From Balanoglossus misakiensis (Eukaryota > Animalia > Hemichordata): a stretch of 64,000 bases of DNA. The notes under the pieces were generated by a model that made no database searches, was not told the origin of the DNA, and worked only from the letters and a program-made list of their open reading frames with translations. Positions within the stretch are counted from its first letter, which is position 1. Every line of letters begins with the position of its first letter. A program made the position numbers and the translations under genes. Positions 15,001 to 61,699 of the stretch are shown one piece after another. The stretch is taken from contig CM082584.2 in NCBI GenBank assembly GCA_040954595.2, positions 11,996,875 through 12,060,874 on the forward strand, given 5' to 3'.

Positions 15001-18000
15001 GAAAAGTCGAAAAATCCTCGATTTTCGAACATTTTCCTGAGCTATAACCCATGGTTTTTTCAAAAAATGACCAAATTTTGAAAATTCGAAAAGTCGAAAA
15101 ATCCTCGATTTTCGAACATTTTCCTGAGCTATAACCCATGGTTTTTTCAAAAAATGACCAAATTTTGAAAATTCGAAAAGTCGAAAAATCCTCCATTTTC
15201 GAACATTTTCCTGAGCTATAACCCATGGTTTTTTCAAAAAATGACCAAATTTTGAAAATTCGAAAAGTCGAAAAATCCTCGATTTTCGAACATTTTCCTG
15301 AGCTATAACCCATGGTTTTTTTCAAAAAATGACCAAATTTTGAAAATTCGAAAAGTCGAAAAATCCTCGATTTTCGAACATTTTCCTGAGCTATAACCCA
15401 TGGTTTTTTCAAAAAATGACCAAATTTTGAAAATTCGAAAAGTCGAAAAATCCTCGATTTTCGAACATTTTCCTGAGCTATAACCCATGGTTTTTTCAAA
15501 AAATGACCAAATTTTGAAAATTCGAAAAGTCGAAAAATCCTCGATTTTCGAACATTTTCCTGAGCTATAACCCATGGTTTTTTCAAAAAATGACCAAATT
15601 TTGAAAATTCGAAAAGTCGAAAAATCCTCGATTTTCGAACATTTTCCTGAGCTATAACCCATGGTTTTTTCAAAAAATGACCAAATTTTGAAAATTCGAA
15701 AAGTCGAAAAATCCTCGATTTTCGAACATTTTCCTGAGCTATAACCCATGGTTTTTTCAAAAAATGACCAAATTTTGAAAATTCGAAAAGTCGAAAAATC
15801 CTCGATTTTCGAACATTTTCCTGAGCTATAACCCATGGTTTTTTCAAAAAATGACCAAATTTTGAAAATTCGAAAAGTCGAAAAATCCTCGATTTTCGAA
15901 CATTTTCCTGAGCTATAACCCATGGTTTTTTCAAAAAATGACCAAATTTTGAAAATTCGAAAAGTCGAAAAATCCTCGATTTTCGAACATTTTCCTGAGC
16001 TATAACCCATGGTTTTTTCAAAAAATGACCAAATTTTGAAAAGTCGAAAAGTCGAAAAATCCTCGATTTTCGAACATTTTCCTGAGCTATAACCCATGGT
16101 TTTTTCAAAAAATGACCAAATTTTGAAAAGTCGAAAAGTCGAAAAATCCTCGATTTTCGAACATTTTCCTGAGCTATAACCCATGGTTTTTTCAAAAAAT
16201 GACCAAATTTTGAAAATTCGAAAAGTCGAAAAATCCTCGATTTTCGAACATTTTCCTGAGCTATAACCCATGGTTTTTTCAAAAAATGACCAAATTTTGA
16301 AAATTCGAAAAGTCGAAAAATCCTCGATTTTCGAACATTTTCCTGAGCTATAACCCATGGTTTTTTCAAAAAATGACCAAATTTTGAAAATTCGAAAAGT
16401 CGAAAAATCCTCGATTTTCGAACATTTTCCTGAGCTATAACCCATGGTTTTTTCAAAAAATGACCAAATTTTGAAAATTCGAAAAGTCGAAAAATCCTCG
16501 ATTTTCGAACATTTTCCTGAGCTATAACCCATGGTTTTTTCAAAAAATGACCAAATTTTGAAAAGTCGAAAAGTCGAAAAATCCTCGATTTTCGAACATT
16601 TTCCTGAGCTATAACCCATGGTTTTTTCAAAAAATGACCAAATTTTGAAAAGTCGAAAAGTCGAAAAATCCTCGATTTTCGAACATTTTCCTGAGCTATA
16701 ACCCATGGTTTTTTCAAAAAATGACCAAATTTTGAAAATTCGAAAAGTCGAAAAATCCTCGATTTTCGAACATTTTCCTGAGCTATAACCCATGGTTTTT
16801 TCAAAAAATGACCAAATTTTGAAAAGTCGAAAAGTCGAAAAATCCTCGATTTTCGAACATTTTCCTGAGCTATAACCCATGGTTTTTTCAAAAAATGACC
16901 AAATTTTGAAAAGTCGAAAAGTCGAAAAATCCTCGATTTTCGAACATTTTCCTGAGCTATAACCCATGGTTTTTTCAAAAAATGACCAAATTTTGAAAAG
17001 TCGAAAAGTCGAAAAATCCTCGATTTTCGAACATTTTCCTGAGCTATAACCCATGGTTTTTTCAAAAAATGACCAAATTTTGAAAATTCGAAAAGTCGAA
17101 AAATCCTCGATTTTCGAACATTTTCCTGAGCTATAACCCATGGTTTTTTCAAAAAATGACCAAATTTTGAAAATTCGAAAAGTCGAAAAATCCTCGATTT
17201 TCGAACATTTTCCTGAGCTATAACCCATGGTTTTTTCAAAAAATGACCAAATTTTGAAAATTCGAAAAGTCGAAAAATTCTCGATTTTCGAACATTTTCC
17301 TGAGCTATAACCCATGGTTTTTTCAAAAAATGACCAAATTTTGAAAATTCGAAAAGTCGAAAAATCCTCGATTTTCGAACATTTTCCTGAGCTATAACCC
17401 ATGGTTTTTTCAAAAAATGACCAAATTTTGAAAATTCGAAAAGTCGAAAAATCCTCGATTTTCGAACATTTTCCTGAGCTATAACCCATGGTTTTTTCAA
17501 AAAATGACCAAACTTTGAAAATTCGAAAAGTCGAAAAATCCTCGATTTTCGAACATTTTCCTGAGCTATAACCCATGGTTTTATCAAAAAATGACCAAAT
17601 TTTGAAAATTCGCAAAGTCGAAAAATCCTCGATTTTCGAACATTTTCCTGAGCTATAACCCATGGTTTTATCAAAAAATGACCAAATTTTGAAAATTCGC
17701 AAAGTCGAAAAATCCTCGATTTTCGAACATTTTCCTGAGCTATAACCCATGGTTTTTTCAAAAAATGACCAAATTTTGAAAATTCGCAAAGTCGAAAAAT
17801 CCTCGATTTTCGAACATTTTCCTGAGCTATAACCCATGGTTTTTTCAAAAAATGACCAAATTTTGAAAATTCGAAAAGTCGAAAAATCCTCGATTTTCGA
17901 ACATTTTCCTGAGCTATAACCCATGGTTTTTTCAAAAAATGACCAAATTTTGAAAATTCGAAAAGTCGAAAAATTCTCGATTTTCGAACATTTTCCTGAG

Positions 18001-19162
18001 CTATAACCCATGGTTTTTTCAAAAAATGACCAAATTTTGAAAATTCGAAAAGTCGAAAAATCCTCGATTTTCGAACATTTTCCTGAGCTATAACCCATGG
18101 TTTTTTCAAAAAATGACCAAATTTTGAAAATTCGAAAAGTCGAAAAATCCTCGATTTTCGAACATTTTCCTGAGCTATAACCCATGGTTTTTTCAAAAAA
18201 TGACCAAATTTTGAAAATTCGAAAAGTCGAAAAATCCTCGATTTTCGAACATTTTCCTGAGCTATAACCCATGGTTTTATCAAAAAATGACCAAATTTTG
18301 AAAATTCGCAAAGTCGAAAAATCCTCGATTTTCGAACATTTTCCTGAGCTATAACCCATGGTTTTTTCAAAAAATGACCAAATTTTGAAAATTCGCAAAG
18401 TCGAAAAATCCTCGATTTTCGAACATTTTCCTGAGCTATAACCCATGGTTTTTTCAAAAAATGACCAAATTTTGAAAATTCGCAAAGTCGAAAAATCCTC
18501 GATTTTCGAACATTTTCCTGAGCTATAACCCATGGTTTTTTCAAAAAATGACCAAATTTTGAAAATTCGCAAAGTCGAAAAATCCTCGATTTTCGAACAT
18601 TTTCCTGAGCTATAACCCATGGTCTTTTCAAAAAATGACCAAATTTTGAAAATTCGCAAAGTCGAAAAATCCTCGATTTTCGAACATTTTCCTGAGCTAT
18701 AACCCATGGTCTTTTCAATAAATGACCAAATTTTGAAAATTCGCAAAGTCGAAAAATCCTCGATTTTCGAACATTTTCCTGAGCTATAACCCATGGTTTT
18801 TTCAAAAAATGACCAAATTTTGAAAATTCGCAAAGTCGAAAAATCCTCGATTTTCGAACATTTTCCTGAGCTATAACCCATGGTTTTTTCAAAAAATGAC
18901 CAAATTTTGAAAATTCGCAAAGTCGAAAAATCCTCGATTTTCGAACATTTTCCTGAGCTATAACCCATGGTTTTTTCAAAAAATGACCAAATTTTGAAAA
19001 TTCGAAAAGTCGAAAAATCCTCGATTTTCGAACATTTTCCTGAGCTATAACCCATGGTTTTTTCAAAAAATGACCAAATTTTGAAAATTCGAAAAGTCGA
19101 AAAATCCTCGATTTTTGAACATTTTCCTGAGCTATAACCCATGATTTTTTTTCAAAAAATGA
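1..19162. repeat. 87-bp satellite DNA array, ~220 monomers, runs off the left edge of the window
   Basis: Consensus CCCATGGTTTTTTCAAAAAATGACCAAATTTTGAAAATTCG(A/C)AAAGTCGAAAAATCCTCGATTTTCGAACATTTTCCTGAGCTATAA repeats head-to-tail with typically 0-2 differences per copy. The last partial monomer ends at ~19162 and unique sequence follows directly. Confidence 0.99.
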
Positions 19163-21361: not shown

Positions 21362-25229
<3,868 letters not shown>

Positions 25230-25624: not shown

Positions 25625-28600
25625 ATGGCTGTGGCCGAATGTTACACGACAATCTCTAGCCGGTTGCCAAGTGTCAAATTCAAACCTAAAGTCAAGAACG
25701 GCAAAGAAAACAGCACCAAAAATGGACGGCCAGAAATTGAATGCACACCGATTGTGGTTGACTTCAGGAGATTGTTTCAAAGTTCCAAGAGTTCTGTTGA
25801 TGTGTTGCCCGGGGTATGTATCCGTTAGAAAGTGGACTCGATTACTAAAAGGAAAACTAAAGAGGAAATAAAATAGATAAAAAGTAACAAGTGGGTGACG
25901 CTGTTACCATAGCAACAGGAGACGCCAGAGCTCAGGACATGAGCCAGCCGTGCCCCATTCATCTTTAATATCATAGTTTTAACAATTTCACCTGCTCATT
26001 GATACAAACACAACACTTTAAAATTTCCATATAGATGTATAAACCCTACTGTGTGTCACATTACAGGTACCGAATAAAGAACTCTTACACACAGTCATGG
26101 CAGTGTTTGACGTCTGCCTTCCAGACATCACACCTGAGGTGTTATACCCGACCGTCTGTGACAAATGGGCAAGAACCTTGCTACTTGTCAGGGATACAAA
26201 AGGTGAGGCTCCAACAGTGGACACATGATAGTAAGATCCTTCTGACTTGAATATGACTTGGTTTTGTACTATTGTAAAGTGACAATATTATTTGAAAATA
26301 TACTTTATGTGGTAATCGCAGATTGTCAAGCATTGGGTTAATCTACTCATTGATGAACTGTTTTTTTTTTTCTCGTTTTTTTCTACAAAATGTAGGTGTT
26401 ATAACTGAAATGAATAACAAGAAGAAAGCTGATGATAAAAGTGCAGAAGATGACAAAGATAAACCGCAAGTAAATGGTGAGGATGATGTCAAAGCTGATG
26501 AGGACAAAGAGGAAGAAGAGAAGGCTGGCAAGTTTGCTGATGTTTTCAGTGACACTGATCATGATGATGAGGAAGAGGAGGAAGATGAAGATGGCAGGTA
26601 CATTACGCATTAACACATAAACAACATACTAGTACTAGTTGAGACTTTTGAAGGAAACAATTTTGAAATGCTACTCAGGTCAGCAATCATCTGAAAACTA
26701 TTGTTCAATTTATCAAAGTAACGTTGACAGTTGACTTCATCTTTTGTTGCAGTGAAAGCGAAGATGAGGACCATTCAGAAGGAGTCAACGATTTCCTTAA
26801 AATTGTGCGGAAAAGAAGGAAAAAGAGGCACAGGGCAAAGGAAGTGAGAAACGAAGTGCCGGAAGAGTTGATTGGGATAGAAAATCGTCTCCTGGCATGC
26901 GCTACGTGGGAAAGATCCAATGTGTAAATATTGGTGTTAATTAATTAACTTCTGTCTGTTGCAGAGTTGAGAATTTCAACATGATAAGAGAAGCAAAGCT
27001 GAAGAGATTAATTATGTGATGATGTTTTCTTCCCTAGGAGACCTGGAGAGAAGATTGTACAGATTAATTTGTTGGGAGTGAGGAAGAGATACAGAAAGTG
27101 GGGACTGGGGAAATTTATGGTGCAGGTAAGAAGAATAACAGCATTCAACTACAGTCGTAAACATTTATTTCTCGTTGTACATGTGGTTGCCTGCCATCCA
27201 AAAGTAACATCACCGGTACATCAGCTAAACATCTGATTAGTGTTGAAGTATCAGTGAATCAAACAATGTCAAATTATCTTTTCTTATCCTCTTGATTATT
27301 TTGTTTTCCAGTCGTTAAAAGATCCGTCCTTGGTTGGCCAGTATGACGCCATAGTGGTGTATGCTGATCACTCAGCTGTCAATTTCTTTGCTCATTACGG
27401 ATTCAGCGATGACATCATACTGAACAGCAAATTCAAAGATTTAGCAGATAACTGGACCAACAGTACGCTCATGTGCTACTTACCTCCATTTACATGTAAG
27501 TTGTTAAATCAAAACGTTCTTTTCTATTTCATATTAAACAAGACCAGCCTGATTAATATAATTGTGGGTGTGTTATCTGTTTCAGCCCAGACAATGCGCG
27601 GAGAGAGTGCCAGTGATCCAGTGTTGGACATCAGAGAGATGGAATTAGAACTGCAGAAATGGACGGAAAAGAGTCGGGAAGCTTATCAGAGTCAGTTTGC
27701 GTGCGCCATGCGAATGAGAAACGAAATAATCACCCTCAGGGCATTGGTAAGGATTTTTACGTCTGCCGTAAAGTTAATTTCAGAAACTGTGGCCAAATTT
27801 GCATAGGTGACTGTATATGTATTGATCTTTCCGTCACAGTAATCTGACACTCATTTATTAATGTTTCCCCATTGTTCTCATTGAAGGTTGCTTCCCAGCA
27901 AGACATCATCACCTACCTACAGAGTGAAGTAGAAAAACTACAGCATTCTAAGTTCCATATTGGTAAGTTTGTCTATTAAAGATTAGGGTTCCTTCCAGAC
28001 CTGTGCCATGTAGACGTACCTACCCCCGGAACAATCTGACAGGCACAGTACTGATGAGTGTTTTGTGAACCTTTACACTGGCGTTCAGCCATTTTATACA
28101 CTGTAACTGTTCTATGTGCACTTCTTCTCTGTAGAGAAAGAATTCCTACAGTACAGACTTCTGACACTAAGAGCTGGCCTGGCACCTCTTCTGAGCGACA
28201 GTTCAGATGATTCTATGAAAGGTAAGTGAAATTATGTACATGTATTGGAAAGATGACTAACTCGCTGAATTTTTTTTCTAACAGCGGGGGTATTCACAGG
28301 ATTTCTCACTCATCTGTTTGTATTTTTTGTATGGCAGACGAGTCAACCACAGACAGCTTACTGAAGGATTTGGAAGAACAAGTTGGTGTTTTGAAACTTG
28401 CCAGAAAACACAGTGAAGAAAACACTACACCAGGTAATGCTACGGTGGCCCATATGTACCACCGTTGTTTTATTGTCAAGTGTATGAGATCTAACGATAA
28501 TTCCATCACTCCATACCTCACACTGTAACATATTCCCATAGCTGACACAACCTTTTAACCTCCATTTTGTTTTTTGTTTGTGTTTGTTTGTCACATGTTG

Positions 28601-29729
28601 GGTTTGTTTGTTGTCACGTTTGTGCACTTTTGCCAGAGGACGGTGTGGATGAGTTGTTGGATGTTCAGACTGATGACGCACACTCTTCTTCAGACTGGCA
28701 GATCATCGAAGAATTCAAACAGAGTCTCAAACAGGACTTGTCAGTCACACAGAAGGCAGAGGTCACTCTCTTGAAAAAGGTGGGTAAAAACTGAGCTGGG
28801 AAGGTCATAAGGAGTTTTGAAGTGCATAGTTCACAAGATAACATTTACGGGCTAAATAAAGTTTTGTTCTCACCATGTGAATTTTCCTGATAACAACCGA
28901 GTCTTTCCCCTACCATCTGTTTTAGGCACAAATGACCCAGAGTGGAATTGAACAGTACAAGTCCAGAATACGAAGCCTGGTCGACCCCAGCATGTGTACA
29001 AAACTGTATTACTGTGGAAGTCTGGAGAGGCCGCACAGACTCGAGTTGATTCTGAAGAATGGTTTCACAGAGCAAGGTAGTTATATTGAAGGTCTGTGTT
29101 GAGAGTTGTTATATGCCTTTGCACTGAAACCTGTCTAAGCTAAGGTTTATGAATCTGCTGTTTTTATTTATTTTCAGATTTCTCACATGGAGAGTATGGA
29201 GTTGGTCTGTACTTTTCACAGTATGCATCCAAAGCAGCCCAATTTTCTGCTGTAAGTATTTTACTCTAATTTACCAGAAAGCTTTCTTTACATCAGTCAG
29301 TAATTATATTGATTTATAAATTACTGGTTATTCATAATTTTCATAATATGCTCTCTCACTTCTTATACTTCCCCGCCCCCTAGCTTGGCAAGATACTTGT
29401 GGCAGAAGTTGGTCTTGGTCATACAGCAACTGTTATAAAGAAGGAAGCAACTCGACGCGCACCACCTATCGGACATGATTCCATCCTGGCAAGTGATTTT
29501 AGATACTAAATCTGGTCAAACATATAGCGGATTAAAAAATAATGCATTCAAATGAATTTCAAGCTACAAATGTAGATACTATATTTAATTTGTGTATTTT
29601 GTTTTGCAGACAAAAGGTCGTCTTATACAGGGTATTGGTGATTCATCAGGAGGTTGCTGTCAGGAGTACGTTGTATTTCATCCGTCCCAAGCCTGGCCTG
29701 TGGCTCTGATAGAATACAAATTGGTCTGA
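25625..29729 (+). CDS. Uncharacterised ~660-aa protein: GCN5-like GNAT domain + coiled coil + PARP/ART (tankyrase-like) catalytic domain
   Basis: 15 phase-compatible exons (25625-25813, 26067-26202, 26396-26597, 26753-26923, 27038-27125, 27312-27495, 27586-27746, 27887-27962, 28135-28221, 28338-28433, 28637-28779, 28926-29076, 29178-29251, 29384-29488, 29610-29729) total 1983 nt with no internal stop. GNAT motifs: QINLLGVRKRYRKWGLG, VYADHSAVNFFAHYGFS, STLMCY. PARP motifs: LYYCGS, ILKNGF, GEYGVGLYFS, VAEVGLG, PPIGHDSI, QEYVVFHPSQAWPVALIEY. The start codon is less certain than the internal exons. Confidence 0.85.
25903..25916. promoter_or_regulatory. RFX X-box in intron 1 of the GNAT-PARP gene
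   Basis: GTTACCATAGCAAC fits the X-box consensus GTNRCC-N(0-3)-RGYAAC exactly. Confidence 0.65.
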
Positions 29730-30109
29730 TGCCACAAGCACCTGTTAAGTCATGGCACATGGCATCAACCATGCTAGAATTAACTGTGGGTTTGACCCTG
29801 TATACCTTGAACCCTAATGGCCTATACATCATTCAGTTTTATTCCACAATTTTACTCCAAAATCCATTGAAGATAATAATAATAATACCATTCCGGCCAT
29901 GTGATTTCAGATTTTACTTTTTCAAGCGCAAACATGATTTTTTATATGTACATTTTGCTTGTTTTCAAGAGCTTTCATAAAACTACATTTGTGTGTCCAA
30001 ATAAAAAATGCCATTACTTTTCTTACATCTTGTGTTTTAATTCCTTTGCTGTATTCAATGCATGATTGTGTAAATAAATTTGGCTTCCTATAAATCAGAT
30101 ATCATCAAT

Positions 30110-30856
30110 TCATGCACTGTCACTGAAAAGTCCAGGAAACCAGAACAATTTTTCTGGTTTGGCCTGTTCATCCACCCAGGCAAGTCCTTCTTTGACCATG
30201 TAGTTGATTGCTAACTTGGCACGCTCATCCTCCCATCCTAACTGTTTCTTCATCTGTGAAATAGAGGTGTAGCCAGTGTCCTTTGCTGACTGCAGAACGC
30301 TTGTGTGGTCCATGTTCAGTTCTGCTGGCACGGACTGGACCAAGTAGTTGTTCCCATCTCCAACTTTCAGTAGGGTGAAGCCGTTCCCTAGAATTTTGAG
30401 TTTCTTGATAGCTCGCATCAAATCGTCCGCGCTGACGTCTTGCGCTTGTTTTGATTTCCCCCTGGTCGTCCTGACTTTGGTCAGGAGTTCGTTTAGATAC
30501 AGCAGTCCACCATTCCTGTGCTGTGTTGCCAGGCACACCTCGATAATCTGGACACCTAGTTCGTAGTAGAAATCACCAACACCAAGCATTTCTGACCAAA
30601 AGCCCTTATTAGAGGCTAACGGGTCAACACCGATAGTTGCACACATCTCTTGAAATTGAGTCCTGAATTCGGGATTCTTACGGATCTCGTTCTTGTGTTT
30701 CCCAGCAAAATCTTCCAGGTTTGTTCTGAAGGCTTCAAGTTGTTTTGACATCTGGGCAAGTTGATCTTCGGCTATGGAGGTCCCCTTGTCTTTGAATTTG
30801 GCCTCGGCAAGTCGCTTTTTATTGATCGCGCCGACCCCGCCTACTCTTCGATGCAT
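30110..30856 (-). CDS. SNF8: ESCRT-II subunit SNF8/VPS22/EAP30, single coding exon, 248 aa
   Basis: MHRRVGGVGAINKKRLAEAKFKDKG..., FQEMCATIGVDPLASNKGFWSEMLGVGDFYYELGVQIIEVCLA, LVQSVPAELNMDHT, EGLAWVDEQ...FWFPGLF all match SNF8. The ATG at 30856 is used instead of the upstream TTG in the ORF track. Confidence 0.97.
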   Translation of the reverse strand: MHRRVGGVGAINKKRLAEAKFKDKGTSIAEDQLAQMSKQLEAFRTNLEDFAGKHKNEIRKNPEFRTQFQEMCATIGVDPLASNKGFWSEMLGVGDFYYELGVQIIEVCLATQHRNGGLLYLNELLTKVRTTRGKSKQAQDVSADDLMRAIKKLKILGNGFTLLKVGDGNNYLVQSVPAELNMDHTSVLQSAKDTGYTSISQMKKQLGWEDERAKLAINYMVKEGLAWVDEQAKPEKLFWFPGLFSDSA

Positions 30857-31344
30857 TTTCAAGTCTTAAGTGATATTAAACCCGCACTTAAAAGGAAATG
30901 AACTGAGTAATACCAGTAAATATCTATGCCTCTTACCGCAGTGGAGCTTCCCCGGTGCAGGTACAGATAAAATGAACCTTGAAATTGTAGACTGTCTGTT
31001 CGTAGAAATGGGTTTGGCGCTCCTATTGTTACTAAGTCGCCTAAATTTAAAGAAAAATAATCTATAACATCAAGACAGCTCCTGTAAATGACATTGTCGT
31101 GATATTTTGTAAATTTACTGAATTAAATTAAATTTATTACAAACGTATCTGTTGTTGAATATACAGCGCTGTACGTCGAATAATAGCTCGCCCTCAACGG
31201 TGTATGTTATAGTAAGCGCTATCTCAATGACGTCACAGGGAAACATGGAAATGTAAACACACCTGTTGCCAGAAGAAGACTAGCGTCTATGACAACCATT
31301 TTTAACGCACTTTTATTTCTTTGACGGATCAAGGAGAACCCGAT
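30857..31344. promoter_or_regulatory. Bidirectional promoter region SNF8 / myristoylated Ubl gene with CRE, forkhead and X-box-like motifs
   Basis: 488 bp between divergent ATGs. TGACGTCA 31228-31235, GTAAACA 31253-31259, GTTGCC half-site 31265-31270, degenerate X-box GCGTCTATGACAAC 31283-31296. Confidence 0.55.
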
Positions 31345-32817
31345 ATGGGTTCCGGGGTTAGCAAAGATCTAACAGTCGGTTTGCCAGTAAGTCCCCGAGC
31401 GGAGTTTGCCGAAAAGAATGCCCCCAAAGGGGCACAGGTAAGCGATCAACACTCTGGCAATGCATTAGCCTGCAATTGGATACATTGTTGCATACACTGT
31501 ATCAATCTTAAGTAACAAAAGTGACACTACAACTATAATGGAGCACCGATTAAAGAACTAAATGTTTTCTTTTTTCCCCAACTGTCCTCAGCCATTACTT
31601 ATCGATACCCCAGCCCTGATTGACCTTGGCCATGGCACTGTTAGATATAGAATTGGACAAGGCAATGAGAAGAAGCCAGAGCCTAAGAAGGCAAAAGCAG
31701 GGTATTTCTACCATCCAAGATTGGATGATTACAGTGAAGGTGAGAGACATGAAATTCTGGGATGGTAAAATCACCACGAAACACCTTTGATTTTATTTTT
31801 CATGTCATATATCCTGATCTTAAAATAGTTGTAGTAATTATCTTTTCCTGTTCAATATACAGAGGCTAGTGAACGACCAGAGGACAACTTCAAGTACCAG
31901 TATGTCTACAGAGCTCCCCCAAAGACAAGAGGGAAGAAACTATTCTATGTTTACGGCATCGGCTTAAACTCAGAGGATCAAGCAAAAATGGTCAAGAAAC
32001 CATATTACAGACCTAAAGGCAAAGGATACTTATGGCCAAGCTCCTTCAGGAAATCCAATCATGTTTATTACGAAGTTAATTTTATAGAACAAGGTAAGGA
32101 GTCATGAGAATGTGTAACAACTTTACCTTTTGCCACAATTGATGTACCCTCTAGGCTATATACACTACTGAGGCAGTGGCACTGGGACTGGCCACTGGCT
32201 TAGCTCAAGTTTCATCCATATTTGGCCATTGGTGGCGCTAAATTCAGTGTTTTGTCCAATAACATCTTAGTATATTCTTCCTTTTGACAGAGGCTGAACT
32301 GATGGATGCTGATAGTGACAGTGAGGATGCTAATGAGAGTGCTGAGCACAGGGATAACATCAGGTATTAGTCAGTCTGCAATTTTACCCATCTGCCATTG
32401 CTTTAGTCACCTGTTGCTATTTCCATATTAACACTATCACACCTGTAATCATGTTTTTATTTGCCTCCACACGCTTCATCGTCAGGTTTAATCTGAGAGA
32501 CAGTGACACAGTCGAGAAATTGAAGAAGAGGGTATCTGTGAGACTTCTTGTACCAGTGTCGAATGTACATCTGAGTTATCAGGAAGTAGAGCTCAGGTGA
32601 GTCCAAGCTTTGGTGCAGTTTTTGACAACATGTCTAAATTGGCCTATCAGTAACTTGCAAGTCAATCTAAGCCATTCATACATTTTTACAAAGTGCTCTT
32701 TTTTTAACGACTATCTTTGAATATTTCTGTTTCAGCAATGACGACATCATCGGAAACTTGCGAACCGAAGAGCTGGGAAGCTTCAAAAGATTTACAATAG
32801 AACTACAGGCAGTGTAG
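31345..32817 (+). CDS. Uncharacterised ~245-aa protein with N-myristoylation motif and C-terminal ubiquitin-like domain
   Basis: Six phase-compatible GT-AG exons (31345-31437, 31592-31739, 31863-32093, 32291-32363, 32486-32596, 32736-32817; 738 nt). Starts MGSGVSK. The C-terminal FNLRDSDTVEKLKKRVSVRLLVPVSNVHLSYQEVELSNDDIIGNL resembles ubiquitin's [40 protein letters not shown]. Confidence 0.75.
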
Positions 32818-33837
32818 AACTTTACAGACGTCCAACCAGAATTAGACTTGAGAAAAAATACTAATGATTATTCTTTGCCGTCCGAGATGAGATTTCACTT
32901 TTATGAGGCACCATCTGGTGATCATGAAAAATTTGAGAATACATAGTACTTGTATGGCATTTTAACACAGTCCCTTGCAAAAATTCTGAATCATGCAAAA
33001 AGAAAAACAATTCATCTTCGTCGAGTTTTCATGGTGGTAATTAACAAAGAGCTTTTATCATCCATTCTAGGGAATAACTTCTATCAGAGAGAACACTCCA
33101 ATGTCTAATGTCTTTTACTAGAAATGTTTAAAGAGTAATATATATTGTCTTCATCATTTTTGTACAAGCCTCTGATTTCACTTACATGTGTAATTTTAAT
33201 TTGTTTTTCATATCACATTTTTATACTTTTTTTAATATGAATGAAATAAAACAAAAATACTGTAATAAAAAAAGCAGCAGCCAGCTTGTTTACTTGAGGC
33301 GTGAGTTTTGTATGGATGTGTATTTATTTAAGCCAATAGGATTATAGAATCTTACACTTCCAAGGACCTGGGTTGATCCATCCAATCAGCGCTCGCGTCG
33401 TATACAGCTTACGATTCTGTAAGAGTGTTGGATCAATTTCTTCTCACACTGATCCCACACACAAAATAACACAAAAAATGTCTTGTATCGAACATAATTA
33501 ATGGAAAAAAGGGCAGCAAGAGAGAGACTTGTCCCTTTAAACCAGTTCAAGTATGGTGAACACAGGGTGATTTTATTGCAAAGTACACAGGAATATAAAT
33601 GCAATATTTATACAGAAGTAATCAGATGGTTGTCAGATGAATATACTACATATAATACAATCTACTGATCAGGTACACGAGGCCACCATCTCTATCAACC
33701 AGATTTCAAATTTACAATTATTCCTCGTTAAAAAATATCTGGACGGTACAGGGAAAGGTTTCGTCAAGCCAACATCAGTTTAGGAATGTTTATGTATAAA
33801 ATTAATTATAAGCATATGGTTACTGCACAGGGGTATC

Positions 33838-36800
33838 TCAATCCACTGCTGTTTTCAGACTATGTGAATCAATGTCAGCTGTGGTTACCACACTTCCTGT
33901 GGTGAAGATGGCCTTGAAATCCTACAATGACGAAAAAAAGCAATATAAATTATAATTACAGAATTGTTTTTTGAGGGATAGAAAATTATTTGGAAAATTA
34001 ACAGAGTGGCCCGAAGGCTGCTACATGATAATGCAACAACAGTGAAATTTAAATCTTTGCTCATAAAAAAAGGAATTCTGGGATTTTGTACTTACCGGGG
34101 TTTTGTATCTCTTGCACATCTGCAGACAATCCTGTATGATTGGATGTTCAATCAAAGTCATAAACAGCACAGGCTGGCTGCTGTCGCTGCCTAGGTCCTG
34201 GTAAACCCCTGCCATGCGTTCCTTGGAAAAGGTGTCCTGGGGGTCAGAGGTCACGCTGAACCGGTGGCTGTCGCCGAGGCGAGGCTGTCCATGATGAAGA
34301 ACCTGAAGTGGTAAACATGGCAGGAGGAAAGTTTGAGTTAGATGTGTGAGGAAATATCAACCACATAATTTGGCTGGTAAAGTGTCTGAAATCAGTAAAT
34401 AAATATGCAGTGAAATACACTCACGATATTCAGTGCTTCTAACGGTACTTTAGCGCTGATGGCCGACTCTGGGATGTCTTCCGTTAGCTGTGCTGGTTCT
34501 TCGCCAAGTGGCTCATCAAGTTTGAGTTCACTGTCACCAACATCGTCCTTCATTGCATCAACAACCTATAAACCAAACACAACGTGGTTTTAGTGTCTGA
34601 CTGTGGCCTCTAACACAATTTGGTGGGCTGTGATCAATCTGAGAGAGGTCGATCCAAGATTAAACAAATTTCACTCTGACAGTGCCAAAAGATCTGATGG
34701 CCTCTCTTTCATTTCTTTCTTTCATCACAGGCCAAAACCATCTCACAACTGATATGGCAGACCCGTACATCCCCACTCCCACACACATCAATCTCTCACC
34801 TCTTTCATCATTTGCAGTTTTTCTTTCTGTGACTGGTCCAACTCTGGCTCCTCTTTCTTGGGTCTTGGCATGTGAGTGCCAGACGCTACACTGAGTGCTC
34901 GGTAGAACCCAATCTGATAGTCTGGGTCAATGGCATAGTATAACAGCTGAAAAAAATTACCACAGTAAACAAAAAATTTTGTTGTTCCAGCCAGTGTCAT
35001 TTTGAAAGAAATGGTGTCATTGATACTAATGGTAGCATTTTCAAAACTTTGAAATTTGAGTACTCGATCTCGATTTTGAACTAACCATATTGACATAGTC
35101 TAACATTGGTGGCGCTGTGTCCAAGTCAGCAAAGATATCAAAGAGTAATTTCTGGACATTGCCAGTTCTGTCAAAGGCATACGGTTCTGATGGGCTTTCT
35201 GGGGAAGGTGGGGGTGCTTCCTGTCCATACCAAAGCTCAACCTGCATTTGGGTGGAGAAGAAAAAAAAGTTTAGGTTTTCAGATTAACTCCGTAGTAGAT
35301 TAAACATTTGGAGAAGTTTCATCTTGCATATAAAGCAATTATTTTTATCTGCCAACCTACCTGTTCGAACTGCTGTCTGTTGACCTGTCCTGTCCCCAGT
35401 GTATCAACAGCTTTGAATTTCTCCAGTGTTTCCAGCAGCTGTGCCTGGGTTGGCTGCGGCCAGGGATGGGTGCACTGCAGCAGGAATGTTCTGAAGTCGA
35501 TGTACTCAGAGTCTGGTGACAACTGAGATGAAACTTGCTCCAACTGAAACAAACAAGTATCGACAATAAAGATCAGATCTTAATACACAGAAAGGGTTTA
35601 TATTATTAAACTAGCTGTTCATCTTCACCCTTACCCTCACCAAATTACTGCCTCTGTCCACAACAACAGAGTTAGACCACGGCTTAGAGGTAAATATGGG
35701 GTTGTGTGATGGAAAATAAAAAAGATTGCTGACCTGAGATGGTGTTGCGTTCATCCACATATCAGGCAAAGCCTCCATACCATGCTGTGAAAACAAAGTA
35801 ATGAGAAATGTGAATGTATTTATCTTTGGTTTAAAATGTGTAACATAATAAGCAATTTACAGATCATCCTCTCATCGACCTAAAACTGATCAAAGTCAAG
35901 GACAAGATACTCACAGTCAATGCAGTCAGGTCTGACATGGTATCGATGAATCCTTGGTTGGAGATAAAACCTGATGGTGCTGTCTTCAGGAACTGCTTCC
36001 GCAAGTTCTTCATCTGGTCCACCGTGAAGATGTCCGGACAGATCTGCTCCACTGGTGAGGGTCTGGGAGGAGGACTTGGGGTACGGAATACCCGGACACC
36101 CTGTGGGGGGAAAGGGGGGGGGGGTGATGAAGTGTTATGTTGATGAGTAAAAACATATCATACTGGGACAAATTTAACAATGATAAATGAAATATTCTCC
36201 CTACCTCCTCAATTAAGAACTCTTTCTGATGAATAATCAGTTTCTGTTTGATCTTCTGTCGACTCTCGACTGCTTCGCGGGCAATAACGCATAATTCATC
36301 AATGCTAAAAAAACAAGAAAAGATAATAAAGTTATTAATGATAACACCAATAAAGATGAACTGACAAACTGACAACACACGACTATATTATGGTTCATCC
36401 CCAATGTTTTTAATGGTACATGGACATTTATATGTTTCAAAACAAGGGAACGGGTTGACAAATGGCAAGCAATAAATACTGTACTCTGAACTCTAATTTT
36501 TGCCATGGTTACCTTTGGATTTCTGCCTGGAATCTAGCTCCCAGCCAATCATTCATGTCTGTGTACACGCCTTCGGATTTTCCCTTCAACTCTTGCAAGA
36601 CCTGAATACCGTGTATTCGGATCAAATCAAGACGAGTCTTCACAGCAGATTCTATACATACACGTAGTAGGATAAAATACTGTTAAGATTGTACATGTCA
36701 TTGACAAGTTCACTATATCAGAACAGAAATCATCCAGTGATGCTACACACATACAACTCTACAAACTGACCTTCTTCTGCTATGGCAGCAAAATATTCCT

Positions 36801-39800
36801 GTTTCATCTTCTCCTTCAATTCCTTCTTGGCCTTCTCTTCAGGACTTTCCTCTGAAAATACAACAAAAATTCAAAAATTAAACTTTATATTAAACTACAT
36901 GGCCCAGAGATAATTGCTAAATTCTTCAGAGTATATCTGTCACAGATTATGCAATGAACTCTGATCATGTCACTATTCTCTCTTTAATCTCAACACTGAC
37001 CTGGTGGAGGAGTAGGTGCAGGTTCAGCAGAGGGAGCCCTCTTGCCTTTCTTCGGCGACTTGGGCGATTTAGATCGAGCTCTGGGAGAAGCCCCGCCCGG
37101 ACTCTTGCCTCTCTTCCCAGTAGGACTCTTCTTTCCTCCCGGACTTTTCCCTCTCTTTCCGCCTTTCTTTCCAGCTGCTGCTGCCTTCTCTTTTTCCTTC
37201 TCCTTTTCCAGTTCTTTCTGCCTCTCTGCTTCTTCTTCAGCATCCTTGGCAGCTTGTTCGGCAGCAGCCTGGAAAAATGTGAGAGCATTAAACGAAAAAC
37301 GGAAATCAGTGACTGAAAACCCGGCCATCACTGAGAGTCTGTGGCACAGTTCATGGGGAAGCTATACTGTCTCAAAATGGAGGCTGACAGCAGAAAGCAG
37401 CAATCAGGGGAAAATACCAACTCAAACAAACAGAACCAAGACAAAACAGGGAACATAAAACAATAATTGAGAAATGTCACCATGTCTACCCCTCAATGTT
37501 TTTTTATTTCCCACAATCTTTTCCCTCCAACTTTCAAAAAACCTTACATTCAATAATTAATTATAACCTTACAACGAATTAACATTTGTACCCTCTTTTG
37601 CAATTAGACTGACACCAACATGGAAGTCCACCTCCCAGTGGTGTCTCTTCTAGACTAGAATATATTTATCAAAAAGGGTGGAAAATTTAACAAAACTTAA
37701 CACTGTTATCGTTACCACCACAGTAAGGGGAAATTGTTGTAAAAGAAACTTAGGTGGTATTCTGTGCAGTATCAATGATGATATGCATGTGCATGCATGT
37801 TCTCTGATTTGCCCGTATAAACACATGCGGGAACAGCTATGAATGAAGTAGTCAAGGCTCTAGACACACTTGTGCACTACATCTCATTTACAAGTCAGAT
37901 TGCGATCACAGCCACAGTGCACAGAACAGAGTCTAGAGTCTCGAATCTAACTGCAGCTCCATGCAATGAAGGGATATTTTTACTGCCTCAATCCCATGCT
38001 TATCACCATGAAACACAGAACACAACAATGATAAAAAAAACATTCTGCGGTGACCAAACACACAATTTATGCTTTACTTAAAACACAGTCCTTAAAACAA
38101 GCATGCAAAGCTATAAACTTTACTTTAAGAACACACAAACACAAGAGCTCCAAGTATCAAACCAGGAAGCACTATTATTTCTCGGTGACATAAAACAGCA
38201 AATTTGATCAATAAATGACTGTGGTGGTAGTTGGAACCCCTGTGTTCTTTTGTACAACGATATATACACATATTCATGCACTTACCAGATAGCATCGTAT
38301 GCAGTCACTTGACTAAATTAGTGTGCAAGCATTAATTGGACACAAGACAACGGAAAAAGACAGACAAAGACAGTGGTGAAATACGAATACACCAAAAAGT
38401 GCAATTACGAAAAATCAAAATCACATCAGGAAGTAAGTCATGAGAGAAATTGAAAAGAGAGTTACACATTCCAGATGCAAAATGTTTTGGTTTGTTTTTG
38501 ACAAAAAAGATTTTCCCATAAACGAGAACTCATGGGATGAGGATCTTTAATTTAACTTTTTTAAAAACATGCTAGTTCATTTTTGTCATTTTTTGCATAA
38601 CAACAATTGCTGTTGAAGAAAAACGATGTTTCAGTGGGAAAGTGTACTAGGACACCAGAATTTTTTTACAGTATAAAGCCAGACACATCATTATATTCTT
38701 TAAAAATGTAAATGAACAACTAGACAAACATTGCCCAGTGATGCATTCTCCACACCAGCGATCAATTTCATTATCTACACCATAGATTTATGAGACAATT
38801 TTAGCGGCCAATGATCAAAGCAATCCCTGCTGTACCCTAAAAACAAAACAACAATTTGCCCGGTGATCGACCTTTTAACTAAGAAAGCAGAAAAGCTGAC
38901 CCTAAAAAAGCATGTTCTCAGAAATCAAATGTATGATTGTTGTTAGATGGTTAGTCTTGCAGTGGTGCGACAACTGTGGTTACAGTGAAAAGTCGGTAGA
39001 GTTGTTGACACCCAAATCTCACACACTGTGTAAAACAGGACAAATTGCAAACATGCTTACCATTTCTGTCACTTTGTAGACAGCAAAGTTATGTGCTTCA
39101 AAGAGAATCTATCAGGGAAAGAAAACAAGTACATGTAATCAGATGTTTCAACATTTTACGGCTAAGCAATTAACCTATTGTCTCATCAATACATGTACTT
39201 CTCAGTACATCTACACTCTTCCACCATAAAAAAGCAAGGAGTCACCATCACAGAATCCCACACATCCTAAAAAAACTCACCCTTTCATCGGGATCACTGG
39301 GTGGCTGAGGAGTTTCCTGACTATCATCCAGCATTCCAGCGCCACCCTTCTCCTTCTCCTTTTCCTTCTTTCCTGCACGGCTCTTGTTTCCTTTGTCTCC
39401 CTTACCAGCGGAAGCCTGAAGTGGGAAGAATCCCTCCGACGAGGTTGGGCGTCGAGGGACAAGCGGAATTCTGGAAAAGCAGGAAAGAGGAAATGAATAT
39501 CCCTATACAGTAAGATATGCTTTCATAAGGGCAGGATTATAATTTACACAACTTTGCAGAGTTGAAAACAATTTTCAAATCACTACAGAACAGCCCAATG
39601 ATGCAAGTAGCCACGGCAATGAGTAGATTCTTACCTCGATTTCTTCTCATCGTCATGATCTTCATCATCATCGTCTTTGCCTTTCTTTCCTTTAGCTGAG
39701 GTCTGCGATGGTGTCTGTGGCAACCCGGACTCGCTGCCGGTCACACTTTTGGCTGACTCCGGTCGTTCGGTCACCGGCAGCTCTATCAGTGGTATTCTGG

Positions 39801-42800
39801 CGTACTCTTCATTCAGTTCATCAGGTATTTTGCCTTCCATGCCGTTATAGTAATCTCGCAGCAGACGTAGAGTGTCTTGGTATCTATCAATTTCACTCTG
39901 TTACATTAACAATAACGGAACAAGAGAGTTATCAGCTTGACAATATAGCAAGCACGCATCAAAGAGGGAAAAATACTATTTTTTGTCTGAATTTAACATC
40001 ACAAAGTCCCCAGGCTGAAAATTTTGCCAATAATATTAACCTTTTGCCCCATATCCCTTGTAAATGGTTCCAAAGTACCCTATGTATCAACTGGACAAGG
40101 TGACTTGTTTGTTTACCTGCATCAATGTAACATAGTGGTTTGTTAGTAAGCCCATTCTGTCCTCTAACCATCCTTCCTCCATCACCATTTTCCTCTCATT
40201 CTCCGCATCTTCTTTTCGGGTGTCACAGATATCCCATAATTTTTCTTTAAGATCCTGTTCACGAAGGGGGGGGGGGGGAAATGAAAACAAAAGATTCAGG
40301 TTGTTTCAGTTTGAGCCACTTATGGTAATGCTCTGAAATGGTAGCAGCTTCCTTGGAAGCCAGAGATATTTCCCAAATGCAAGTGTGGCACTAGTCTGAG
40401 ATACATGCATGCGAGCGTTGTTTTCAAATGCCTTCATCAAATCAACGAAACAAAGGAAATCTTCACCTCAATTCTTTTATGCAACTCCGCTTTCGTCTCT
40501 TCGTCCTCTCTCATATCATCCGGGACTTCGTTGTAATCATTCTGCCACTGTGTTACAAACTCCTGCTTTATATCCGGCCTCTTCAGGAAATCCGCAAAGA
40601 CGTTGCGGATCCTGTGGAAGTAGCGGTAAATGTTCTCGCGTTCTCCACGCACTGCACGGAATACGTGCTTGCTGCAGTTGATGTAGGATGACTCCACAGT
40701 TTCCCAGTGTGGGGCCAAGATATGCGCCAGCTCCTACAAGAGACAGAACCACAATAATTGAGTATGTAGGAAAATAATGTTACTAACGGCTGAATGCCAC
40801 GATTACTATTTTTTCTCACAGCCCTAGCTGAAAGGTACAAGAATATGGATCCTACTAACCGGATCGATAGCCTCATCCACATATTCCCAGTCTTCTGATC
40901 CGGGCTGCGGTGGTGGGGGACCAGGTGGCTCCAGGGGTTCCGGTTCTGGCTCTGGTTCCGGGGTCTTGGATTTCCTTCCAGACTTCCCTCTCTTTGGAGA
41001 TTTGGATTTTTCTCTCTTGGGAGATCCTGGATTTTGTGATTCACAGAGTAAGCATAAGTCAGTTATCATTATGGTTTGATGCAGTGTTGGTGTTAATTGC
41101 ACTGTTAGTGTTTATGATCTATACTTATGTCAATGTGTTATGTTTTTTTGTGCAGGGTGTTAAAATTCCATCTTTCCTGTTAATGCCTCTTTTTGAAGAA
41201 AAGAATTGGGATTTTTTTGTTTGCCGTGTGAGTACAGCAGAGATGCATATAACTCCAGTGGTTAATGTGTAAAGCTTGCTTGTGTCAATTGTTAGGTTTG
41301 GATTTGAGGGTTGATTGTGGTATGTGGTTGTTATGCTTGGAAGTTAGAAGTGAGAATGTGATTTTACACGCAAAGGCTTTAAAAGTAGAGTTGGTTTTCT
41401 ATGTGGTCAACCATATCACCCCAGAATTCCTGCACAGTGCGATTTTTCTTGTCTCGCCATGGGCAGATGTGATCTACGGTGTTCTCACTAAATGTCACTT
41501 TTCACAGACAACTGACAGGTACGTTGCCTATTCTTTTCTGTGAGGCAGGACAACTGGGGCGAACAGGTTAAGTGGTATAGGTAGACTGATGTGCTTAGGA
41601 ACCGCAGCTTGCATTGCGTGTGACACCAACTTACGTGACTTCTTTCCTTTAGCTTTGTCTTTTCCTTTGTCTGCTGAGGTACGTGCATGCATTGTGGGGG
41701 GTAGGCGGTACAAGAACAGGGTTAAAATACAAATACAGGGCGGGATACATTAAAGGTAAAAACCACACAGCAACAAGGGTAAAGGGTGGGGCAGCAACAC
41801 CACACAACACAGAGCAGATAGACCTTTATAGCTATACAAGTCATCAGAATGATGTATGTGCACTAAAATGCAGAATCACTTAGATTTTTATCAATATTTT
41901 CCACAACAACAAAATAGAGCCAGTACATCCTTAATTGTCATTTGGCAGACACACATTCAGTGGATGGTGCATATTCTGTGTATAAAACTATGAACTATGT
42001 GTACAGTTTGACAGAGTGACAGGGCAGTCCTGCCAAAAGATAAAACACTTTATTTATAATACACAAAGTGTGAATACTATTATTGTCAAAGTAGCAAAAT
42101 CCTACAGGTCAGTAAGAAATAGTTGAGTGTGCATACAAAATGTTTCATATAAGCCACAAGTATGTGCATTTATCAACATGTAGTGCTTGTCAAGACACAT
42201 TCAAAATTTACCAATGTGACTTTGACATCTGGCCCATTACTACTGCATCAATACAAAGTCTTCAAACCTAGATACAGTTTCGTACAGTCCAGATATATAC
42301 GGCCAAATTCCAAGTCAACATTTCAATACATCAGTGCATCAACTTACCCTTTCGGTCACCAGACGGCGTTCTCTTGGGACTACCGGCACGTTTAGGGCTG
42401 GCACTACCACTCCGTTTCCCCTTACCACTTCCCTTTGGCGAGCCTTCTCTCTTGGGTGATCCTGTCCTCTTCGGGGAACCTCCCCTCTTTGGAGATCCTC
42501 CTCTTTTGGGGGAGCCACCCCTCTTGGGAGAACCTGTATAACAGTGAATCAATGCTTATTCACATGGAACATTAACCAAACATTTTCCTTCAACATCCCT
42601 GCAAACAGTTCAGTAAAAGTATTACTAACGAAAGACTAGATCAAGTTAAAAAGGTACAAATGCATTCACTTACCACCTCGAGAGCCTTTCTTGGAGCTTG
42701 GTCTATCAACGCTTGCCTGAAATGAACCACAATGGTTGATGAAGGCAATATTAACACAATGTATACACATGGTACGCCAAATATCAAAATGACAATTCTG

Positions 42801-52662: not shown

Positions 52663-52820
52663 ATGTTTCACAAACCATTCCGCGTAAAATCAAACACAAC
52701 AATAAAAGGATCTGACAGGTTAGTGATTTTTGTTCGAATTACTACAAATGAGTACCATATTGTTATAATGAATGCTACATGATGATGATGATGATGATGA
52801 TCATGATGATGATGATCATG

Positions 52821-52853
<33 letters not shown>

Positions 52854-55800: not shown

Positions 55801-56745
55801 GCGATGGGACGAAGTCTTCCAAAGGTAGAGTGTTTTAATGTAAAAAATGCTTGGATTTGTGATCTGATGGTCGTGTAATCAAAGGCCGGTTGGTGTCAGA
55901 GGTTCAGATGGGGAAAGTGCAGCAAATCTCATCTGTCTGAAGCACACTAAACAAAACTTTTCCCATTTTCCTCTACACTTTTCCCATTAGGTGTTACAAC
56001 CAAATGGGGTCAGGGTATCAGCTTACGTTTCCGGGGCAACCACAACTGAGAGATGGTGGTGTCAAGAAAGGTAAACTGCCAAGTATAAACATCAACACAG
56101 AGCAGAGGACAGGCAACAAGAAGGTAATTATCCCTCTCCCAAGTTGTGGTTGATTTCACATATTGCCAGTGGTGATTCTACAGTGAGGTCACCCGCCATC
56201 AAACACTGCATCGTACATTCCAGAAGAATGCCTCCATCCAAGCCACAAAACTCCCAACCTCCTCTATCTTTTTTTCCTTTCTTCAGGTGACGCTGGTTCA
56301 GAATCTTGAGACGTTTGGCATCGACCCCAAATCATTTGCGCACAAAGTTCAAGTCGGGGTCGCGGCAAGCACCGCCATCAGTGCAATAGCGGGAAAGACG
56401 ACTGGATCACAGGTCCTCATCCAAGGCAATCAAATCAACTATGTCGCCCAGTTGCTTCTAGGTAGGAAAGGTTTCTGTCAAACTCAGGAATTCCTGTTGG
56501 TCACATGCCTTTTGGGACTAAAGAATCCTGCCAATACCAGAATGTGCAGTACCAGGATGTACGACCTACTTTATAGTACATGCAAATGTCAAGCCTATGC
56601 CTACAGCAACTGAGTCATAAACTGATAATTTATTACACCTGTCACATATGTCTTTCTACCTTCTGTTGCAGACGAATATAAAATTCCTAAAAAGTACGTC
56701 CAGGGATTAGAAAAGGCCCCCAAGTCGGGAAAGAAGAAGAGATGA
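52663..56745 (+). CDS. EIF2D: Eukaryotic translation initiation factor 2D (ligatin; PUA, SWIB, SUI1 domains), multi-exon
   Basis: MFHKPFRVKSNTTIKGSDR|RKLKADI, PTVYTVWKYP, GGADLMLPGVV, LDIKKSSYKKLSKFL, SUI1 domain QRTGNKKVTLVQNLETFGIDP...VLIQGNQ, ending IPKKYVQGLEKAPKSGKKKR-TGA. Confidence 0.96.
52778..52899. repeat. (GAT/CAT)n trinucleotide microsatellite in EIF2D intron 1
   Basis: ~40 triplets of GAT interspersed with CAT between the GT donor at ~52719 and the AG acceptor at ~52929. Confidence 0.92.
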
Positions 56746-61542: not shown

Positions 61543-61699
61543 CAAAGTCACGCGACGTAGTGAAGGTCATATCGCCTCGCAAAACTGTCAACAAAGCTGA
61601 TTGCACAAAAGAGTGAAAGTGTGTGGTAGAGATAAGGGCGAGAGTCGACTGCGTCATTGTAGTTTCGTACGGGGGAAATTCGCACAAGAGTACCCGGCG

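Follow-up and report, generated by a model that had tools for sequence, protein, structure and literature searches.

A split Gcn5-like GNAT fused to a histidine-less PARP-like domain in Balanoglossus misakiensis: what looks like an ancient eukaryotic lineage

Introduction

Whether a PARP-like domain can go on working once the histidine of its H-Y-E triad has gone is the question raised by a gene of the hemichordate Balanoglossus misakiensis. In a stretch of 64,000 nucleotides of its genome (hereafter the window), a first-pass annotation had noted a PARP domain in which this histidine is replaced by cysteine while the triad tyrosine and glutamate are kept. It had offered three explanations: an inactive domain comparable to that of TASOR, a redox-sensitive ADP-ribosyltransferase (ART), or an enzyme with an altered substrate. 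Here, we analyzed the gene, its domains and its relatives.

Results

Gene model and protein layout

The C-Y-E triad is present as it had been described: the three codons were confirmed in the window, stand in a single frame and align with the H-Y-E positions of tankyrase-1 (Table 1). They belong to a gene of 15 coding exons that splice into one frame of 660 amino acids without internal stop. Thirteen of its introns are GT-AG and one is GC-AG; the latter (29489-29609) interrupts the PARP domain, and its junction is borne out by the orthologue alignment. The protein is identical at 524 of 667 positions (79%) to P0003, an uncharacterised protein of Ptychodera flava against which every exon aligns, and shows 76% identity to the Glandiceps protein P0004. 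From the N- to the C-terminus, it comprises a split Gcn5-like GNAT, a coiled coil and a tankyrase-like PARP-like domain. This fusion to a GNAT is the main context of the domain and was missing from the first-pass annotation, which had given the domain the interval 28926..29729; its start really lies one exon upstream, at ~28693.

Exon 11 also holds an alternative candidate acceptor at 28693, and 19 residues matching part of this exon are missing in Ptychodera isoform X2 and present in Glandiceps. This sequence pattern suggests alternative splicing immediately upstream of the PARP domain.

Table 1 Features of the GNAT-PARP gene in the window.
Feature	Position	Strand	Basis
Whole gene, GNAT-coiled coil-PARP-like protein	25625..29729	+	Open spliced frame; identity to P0003 and P0004
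Coding exons 1-5	25625-25813, 26067-26202, 26396-26597, 26753-26923, 27038-27125	+	
Coding exons 6-10	27312-27495, 27586-27746, 27887-27962, 28135-28221, 28338-28433	+	
Coding exons 11-15	28637-28779, 28926-29076, 29178-29251, 29384-29488 (GC donor), 29610-29729	+	
GNAT N-terminal half, aa ~39-108	25739..26201	+	P0003 model against yeast Gcn5 HAT
Acidic/helical insert in GNAT, aa 109-217	26202..26876	+	Composition; low pLDDT in P0003 model
GNAT C-terminal half, aa 218-323	26877..27494	+	Pfam Acetyltransf_10 in orthologues; Tetrahymena Gcn5 alignment; conservation
Long helix / coiled coil, aa ~335-423, predicted parallel homodimer interface	27618..28196	+	P0003 model; complex score
PARP-like (ART-fold) domain, aa ~483-660	28693..29729	+	Pfam, Foldseek, fold alignment
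Cys541 (His position; TGT, 29013-29015) and Gly542 (nicotinamide-binding Gly)	29013..29018	+	Alignment to tankyrase-1
Tyr573 (triad; TAC, 29210-29212), Lys580, Ala581 (Ser in tankyrase), Phe584 (stacking Tyr in tankyrase)	29210..29245	+	
Near-invariant Arg610 (29453-29455); Gly624-Arg625 (29616-29621)	29453..29621	+	Conservation counts
Variable CC pair (29655-29660); catalytic-position Glu640 (GAG, 29664-29666)	29655..29666	+	Site rates

Fold and pocket of the PARP-like domain

The PARP assignment itself held up. Pfam PARP (PF00644) matches P0003 with 37.2 bits (cut-off 26.7) and seven of nine close orthologues above the cut-off, while the single exon of the window taken alone scores 13.6 bits. 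The fold evidence comes from an AlphaFold model of P0003 (mean pLDDT 79, pTM 0.51), in which the domains are predicted with confidence but their relative arrangement is not. Residues 471-652 of this model superpose on tankyrase-2 with a Z of 19.9 (rmsd 2.7, 168 residues aligned, 23% identity), and Foldseek also retrieved tankyrase-2 with the P0003 model (E 9e-11). Next came PARP10 (Z 17.7), PARP13 (17.3), RCD1 (16.8), SRO1 (14.5) and TASOR (14.1); because PARP10 and PARP13 are close behind tankyrase-2, the predicted fold assigns the domain to no PARP clade. In a profile of 51 orthologues, Cys541 aligns with the His of the tankyrase-1 HGS motif, Tyr573 with the Tyr of GIYF and Glu640 with the catalytic Glu, and these are therefore the true triad positions.

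Compared with Gly863, Ser904 and Tyr907 of the nicotinamide site, the glycine is retained, serine is replaced by alanine and tyrosine by phenylalanine. Among 84 non-redundant family domains, Gly or Ala is found at the first site in 73, Ala at the Ser904 site in 80, and Phe or Tyr at the third in 69. Arg610 and the pair Gly624-Arg625 are each kept in 79 of the 84; the pair is common to tankyrase, and Arg610 has no match in PARP4 or tankyrase-1. Lys580, by contrast, is retained in just 36 of the 84, and Pfam scans of 19 proteins of the family found no WGR, PARP regulatory, SAM or ankyrin domain. With this lysine variable and no activating or polymerising domain at hand, chain synthesis would be unlikely.

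Besides the best fold match and the Gly-Arg pair, the domain has in common with tankyrase-1/2 a similar D-loop length and a C-terminal EY..F..Q..P pattern; tankyrases differ by their H-Y-E triad, by Ser and Tyr in the nicotinamide site, by their ankyrin and SAM domains and in making poly-ADP-ribose. The best sequence-profile match was PARP4 (E 3.7e-8). PARP4 and PARP3 also keep the Glu and yet are classed as mono-ARTs (PMC7955679), but both keep the His and stand in other domain contexts.

Conservation of the triad across the family

To follow the triad, we collected 51 rows of close orthologues, of which 7 were dropped for missing triad columns. Cysteine is found in all 44 remaining rows, tyrosine in 43 and glutamate in 43 (one gap). 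At the scale of the family, 117 proteins match the domain profile and 106 reach the domain end (11 dropped); none of these 106 aligned domains carries His at the triad position. The conservation of C, Y and E, which the first-pass annotation had proposed to check, holds in the close orthologues; across the family, the position of the cysteine is conserved as a small residue.

A non-redundant set was then considered (84 rows at <90% identity, 3 of them dropped as misaligned or lacking β1, leaving 81). Its triads are C-Y-E (55 domains), G-Y-E (9), A-Y-E (6), C-H-E (5), S-Y-E (2) and one each of C-Y-K, C-M-Q, T-Y-E and S-P-Q, so that every domain has a small residue where the His would be (C 62, G 9, A 6, S 3, T 1) and Cys is replaced in 19 of the 81. 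Cysteine occupies the site in most animals, and Gly, Ala or Ser elsewhere. Tyr573 is present in 77 and Glu640 in 81 of the 84 rows. When rates were estimated for 136 sites (tree length ~45 substitutions per site), Glu640 tied for the slowest, and Tyr573 and Cys541 ranked 13 and 29, counting from the slowest. The CC pair that the first-pass annotation had singled out two residues before the Glu does exist in the sequence but is not conserved: its first Cys is found in 2 and its second in 12 of the 44 close orthologues, and the two sites are among the fastest (ranks 122 and 111).

The nicotinamide subsite (Gly/Ala, Tyr/His and an aromatic residue) is intact in 66 of the 81 domains, and all 66 keep the Glu. 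All three losses of Glu fall among the 15 domains with an altered subsite (Fisher p 0.005, on rows that are not independent). Conversely, the Glu is retained in 12 of these 15, including all five frog rows, which means that it can persist without an intact pocket.

A relocated histidine was considered as a family-wide substitute and rejected, as the His found five residues past the Cys in many animals is absent from corals and protists. Four PARP-only matches (P0141, P0145, P0150 and P0154) form a C-H-E subgroup; the N-terminus of P0150 is long and unrelated, without a GNAT.

Selection and history of the cysteine

Over 108 codons of the PARP exons, comparison of two coral-type loci (L009 and L002) gave a dN/dS of 0.069 (17 synonymous and 5 non-synonymous differences, p 1e-8). 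As measured in these relatives, the PARP-like domain is under purifying selection, far from the neutral evolution (dN/dS near 1) that the first-pass annotation had named as the contrary outcome. The window itself is near saturation against L002 (dS 3.4, ratio 0.15), and one of the two L004 exons is saturated.

A tree of the GNAT-coil region (79 rows, quick search, root placed on Cyanophora by choice) recovered a 68-row clade (SH-aLRT 92) with all named animals, the Gly/Ala/Ser rows and Pigoraptor lying outside. The PARP-domain tree, which includes no canonical PARPs, is poorly resolved and was used solely for its Cys-rich clade: 71 rows (96/98) with 62 of the 63 Cys-labelled ones, and with Pigoraptor inside on a long-branch join. 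From these sequences, we infer that the His was lost before the GNAT-PARP family spread and that the Cys became fixed close to the root of the animals. Later changes of the Cys among animals are seen in Spea (Gly) and Pelodytes (Ser).

The GNAT domain

Residues 44-339 of the P0003 model align with 161 of the 164 residues of the yeast Gcn5 HAT (Z 13.9, rmsd 2.8). Gcn5/PCAF (KAT2) is the closest GNAT both by sequence (E 1.4e-5) and by fold (Z 13.9-14.0), and Pfam Acetyltransf_10 was matched in orthologues. The GNAT is a CoA-using fold, and its acetyl-CoA motif A (R252-x-x-G255-x-G257, 27093-27110) is well kept: in 102 non-redundant rows taken from 146, the first position is Arg or Gln in 99, the second Gly in 77 and the third Gly or Ala in 101. 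The YAD..A..FF..GF motif found in Gcn5/PCAF is kept along with it, and Asp281 is present in 95 rows.

Three features set the domain apart from Gcn5/PCAF. An insert of ~110 amino acids rich in acidic residues (41 of 109 are Asp or Glu) interrupts it; in the P0003 model, pLDDT is low at residues 137-161 and 185-192, and identity to P0003 amounts to 59% across aa 109-175. The general base of Gcn5 is a Glu in β4, and this position, aligned to Tetrahymena Gcn5, is occupied here by Gln241 (27060-27062) and in the 102 rows by Gln (38), His (34), Asp (9) or Glu (6). Finally, Pfam scans of the family proteins found neither a bromodomain nor a PCAF domain. By its sequence features, the domain is a GNAT but not a Gcn5 orthologue, with putative acetyltransferase activity.

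The coiled coil and a predicted dimer

An 89-residue helix (346-434 in the P0003 model) joins the GNAT and PARP-like domains. Two copies of P0003 340-652 were predicted to form a parallel, in-register coiled coil with a score of 0.55, compared to 0.26 for the best of three controls; the interface covers residues 364-424, with a run agreement of at least 32% of contacts and a pLDDT of at least 65. In calibration, 21 of 30 microbial homodimers and 17 of 29 eukaryotic ones passed the mark used to call dimers, as did none of 23 microbial or 30 eukaryotic monomers; of eukaryotic pairs lacking a solved relative, 1 in 7 passed. The protein is thus predicted to homodimerise via the coiled coil; what passed is an ordinary coiled coil, and the prediction may echo structures of this kind that have already been solved.

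Distribution and losses of the family

A search with the region returned 53 proteins of echinoderms, lophotrochozoans, corals and horseshoe crabs, almost all of which are annotated as uncharacterised or hypothetical. Searching 1.84 billion representatives with a profile, with the best 150 listed, gave 127 matches at E ≤1e-30; of the 140 new proteins in this list, 30 were named, and an additional search gave 20 matches. Among the named members are Actinia, Macrostomum, Branchiostoma, Callorhinchus, Latimeria, salamanders, a caecilian, frogs, Pigoraptor and Cyanophora, and orthologues span corals, molluscs, echinoderms, sharks, the coelacanth, amphibians, a filasterean and a glaucophyte. The proteins of Pigoraptor (filasterean) and Cyanophora (glaucophyte) have both the GNAT and the PARP domain, that of Cyanophora aligning at 36% over the GNAT-coil and at 25% over the PARP domain; it is possible that single protist records result from transfer or contamination. 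No amniote (human included) or insect member was found among the named matches, most of the distant matches being without names and the word-based searches limited in reach; with no human or amniote member among these, medical relevance is limited. A pattern search of viral contigs gave 101 matches, none of which was a relative.

In the ESM Atlas, the GNAT-PARP combination forms clusters of 58 and 60 members (score 0.98), next to a GNAT-only cluster of 180 members (0.78); queried alone, the PARP-like domain falls in generic PARP clusters. The PARP domain is missing from proteins of Limulus, Tachypleus, lamprey, Styela, Polyodon, Amia, two Acipenser and Dicrocoelium, some of which may be truncated gene models. 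Since several lineages have lost the PARP domain, the GNAT and coil appear to be the core of the protein and the PARP domain accessory to it. Taken together, the family looks like an ancient eukaryotic GNAT-PARP lineage with a PARP fold that lacks the His.

The fish orthologue is named si:dkeyp-50b9.1; the zebrafish gene of this name is reported, along with genes of meiosis and the flagellum, to be up-regulated in testis and in male-like juveniles (10.1101/650218). This gives a weak lead to a role in sperm or ciliated cells; the examined proteins of the source fish lineage have no PARP domain, and neither does the Polyodon protein that bears the same name.

Genomic neighbourhood

The region around the gene is gene-dense and begins where an 87-base satellite (1-19162, 220 copies, 99% matches) stops abruptly; this satellite yields long spurious ORFs on the minus strand. 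A class I histone deacetylase gene (21400-25229, minus strand), with Pfam Hist_deacetyl on three exons and presumably HDAC3-like by its N-terminus, is the head-to-head neighbour of the GNAT-PARP gene. The distance between the two start codons is 395 bases, and the two genes likely use one bidirectional promoter. On the other side, an intronless SNF8-like ORF of the EAP30/Vps36 family (30110-30865, minus strand, E 4.6e-60) lies tail-to-tail with the gene, the stop codons being ~380 bases apart; because AATAAA signals occur between them at 30000 and 30073, the 3′ ends of the two genes may overlap. No HDAC or SNF8 match was found in 50 family loci, of which the 11 that hold the 5′ part of the gene span at most ~3 kb upstream.

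Further along, an apparent short multi-exon gene (31340-33100, plus strand), recognised by eye and without Pfam match in the two frames scanned, lies head-to-head with the SNF8-like gene. It is followed by a SPEF2 (sperm flagellar 2) gene (34791-51404, minus strand; SPEF2_C, ADK, SPEF2_D5 and CH_2 matches), an eIF2D-like gene (52772-56610, plus strand; Pre-PUA and SUI1 matches) and a polyubiquitin-like ORF (61601-62491, plus strand; three ubiquitin matches).

Discussion

Because the Glu is near-invariant, the nicotinamide subsite is intact in most domains and the His site is never bulky, we tentatively favour a mono-ADP-ribosyltransferase that lacks the His, has an open pocket and is weak or dependent on a partner, a reading nearly tied with that of a non-catalytic pseudo-PARP. 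The ancestor of the family would already have been without the His, and Cys541 would be a filler of compatible size. Gly542, Tyr573, Phe584 and Glu640 would still grip the nicotinamide-ribose end of NAD+, and the missing contact to the adenosine ribose would reduce NAD+ affinity as in PARP1 H862A, which is reported to remain significantly active at 5 mM NAD+ but to be far less so at 50-100 µM (PMC7515702). The coiled coil would unite two GNAT and two ART domains, and the ART may modify the partner or substrate of the GNAT, possibly in sperm or ciliated cells.

Work on other non-canonical members speaks for an open pocket of this kind. SRO2 is reported to be an active mono-ART with a deviant triad (PMC9614482), and Gly or Ala next to the His position is described as compatible with nicotinamide binding (PMC9614482; PMC9861866). 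Where RCD1 and Ta-SRO1 have a bulky Leu at the His position (PMC9614482), as does TASOR (L184; PMC7532188), such a plug never occurs at this site in the 81 family domains. Counting against a mono-ART, the His is said to be conserved wherever an ART is enzymatically active (PMC7515702), and the plant C-V-E and C-Y-E precedents discussed below, the Glu kept in altered pockets and the repeated losses of the domain would also weaken this reading.

The same observations make the pseudo-PARP a serious competitor. Such a domain would bind protein, ADP-ribose or nucleic acid, regulate or target the GNAT dimer, and keep its Glu for structure or binding. The lack of His throughout the family agrees with it, as His-less PARP9, PARP13, RCD1, Ta-SRO1 and TASOR are all reported to be inactive (PMC2964712; PMC7955679; PMC9614482; PMC7532188). 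So does the persistence of Glu in altered pockets, and so do the losses of the domain. The closest precedent comes from plants, and it had been overlooked when the first-pass annotation called a change from H to C with the E kept atypical. Clade 1D PARPs of land plants have Cys for His and keep the Glu, with Tyr kept in moss only (PMC2964712), and the Cys, Tyr, Ala (Ser904 site) and Phe (Tyr907 site) of moss PARP3 reproduce the four sites of the family (PMC2964712 supplement S5); the C-Y-E triad is not new. Arabidopsis PARP3 (C-V-E) is described as keeping the Glu while neither binding NAD+ nor being active, and AtPARP1 mutated to C-V-E as binding NAD+ but inactive (PMC6701155).

The plant proteins, however, are PARP1-type, with BRCT, WGR and regulatory domains (PMC6701155), whereas the family has a GNAT and a coiled coil, a shorter D-loop and Gly, Ala or Ser in its non-animal members. 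Because of these PARP1-type domains, we infer that the Cys arose convergently in plant PARP3 and in the GNAT-PARP family.

The known inactive cases also differ from the family in their pockets. AtPARP3 lacks the Tyr as well. TASOR, PARP13 and RCD1/SRO1 share with the family a PARP fold without the triad His, but they have lost at least two NAD+-contact residues (PMC9614482; PMC7532188), and the pockets of TASOR, PARP13 and Ta-SRO1 are described as occluded (PMC9614482; PMC7532188). A loss of two or more contacts that includes the Glu is not what we found: Glu, Tyr and Gly are kept, and the His and Ser904 sites differ. The four pocket residues (Gly, Tyr, aromatic, Glu) remain together in the 66 intact domains, from glaucophyte to vertebrates, and position 541 is small in all. 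TASOR, to which the first-pass annotation had compared the domain, is reported to have lost all NAD-contact residues but one and to have a plugged pocket (PMC7532188); it is a poor model for a domain that keeps Gly, Tyr, the aromatic residue and Glu, and we rejected it.

A change of co-substrate seems unlikely. The space left at the 2′-OH of the adenosine ribose would let the domain use or sense NADP(H), or a phospho-adenosine ligand such as CoA, in a manner coupled to the GNAT. The protein would then be a dimeric acetyltransferase-ADP-ribosyltransferase with two writing activities, using NADP+ (hence phospho-ADP-ribose) or reading phospho-adenosine/CoA through an enlarged adenosine pocket. 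The consistently small residue at the His site, the two near-invariant arginines and the CoA-using fold of the fused partner are consistent with this reading, as is the report that PARP1 His862 bonds the very 2′-OH that distinguishes NAD+ from NADP+ (PMC7515702). Against it, the alignments show no conserved basic residue after β1, and Arg625 is common to tankyrase.

The redox-sensitive ART of the first-pass annotation, with Cys541 and the CC pair as thiols in a redox or metal switch, is very improbable. Cys541 is indeed invariant in the close animal orthologues and rather slow, but Gly, Ala, Ser or Thr stands in its place in nearly a quarter of the non-redundant domains, animals such as Spea (G) included, and the fast-evolving CC pair was rejected as a redox or metal site. 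Sequencing error or decay of the window copy can be dismissed almost outright: frogs do show decay, and other lineages have lost the domain, but the Cys is common to orthologues, whose conservation refutes an artefact, and the domain is 87% identical to that of P0003 against 59-63% for the flanking linkers, with a dN/dS of 0.07 in relatives.

The literature searched did not yield any description of this fusion family; most subscription journals were outside this search, and an earlier mention is possible. A term search of the PARP-evolution surveys PMC2964712 and PMC4245714 gave no mention of GNAT or acetyltransferase, and none of the GNAT-PARP family was found in passages of PMC8150716, PMC6479469 and PMC4245714. 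Another ART-like family of eukaryotes that had been overlooked, LRRC9-ART, provides a parallel (PMC7955679). What was already known is that automatic Pfam annotation flags the domains and that the triad has its plant precedent; what appears new is an ancient, unstudied PARP-fold lineage without the His, fused to a split GNAT.

In this family, nature itself offers a way to ask whether H-Y-E can lose its "essential" His while Tyr and Glu stay, with material for comparison in its Cys, Gly, Ala and Ser alleles, in the decaying frog copies and in the clean losses of ray-finned fish, lamprey and chelicerates. The outcome would bear on why plant PARP3 retains its Glu. Were the PARP-like domain active, one dimeric protein would write both acetylation and ADP-ribosylation.
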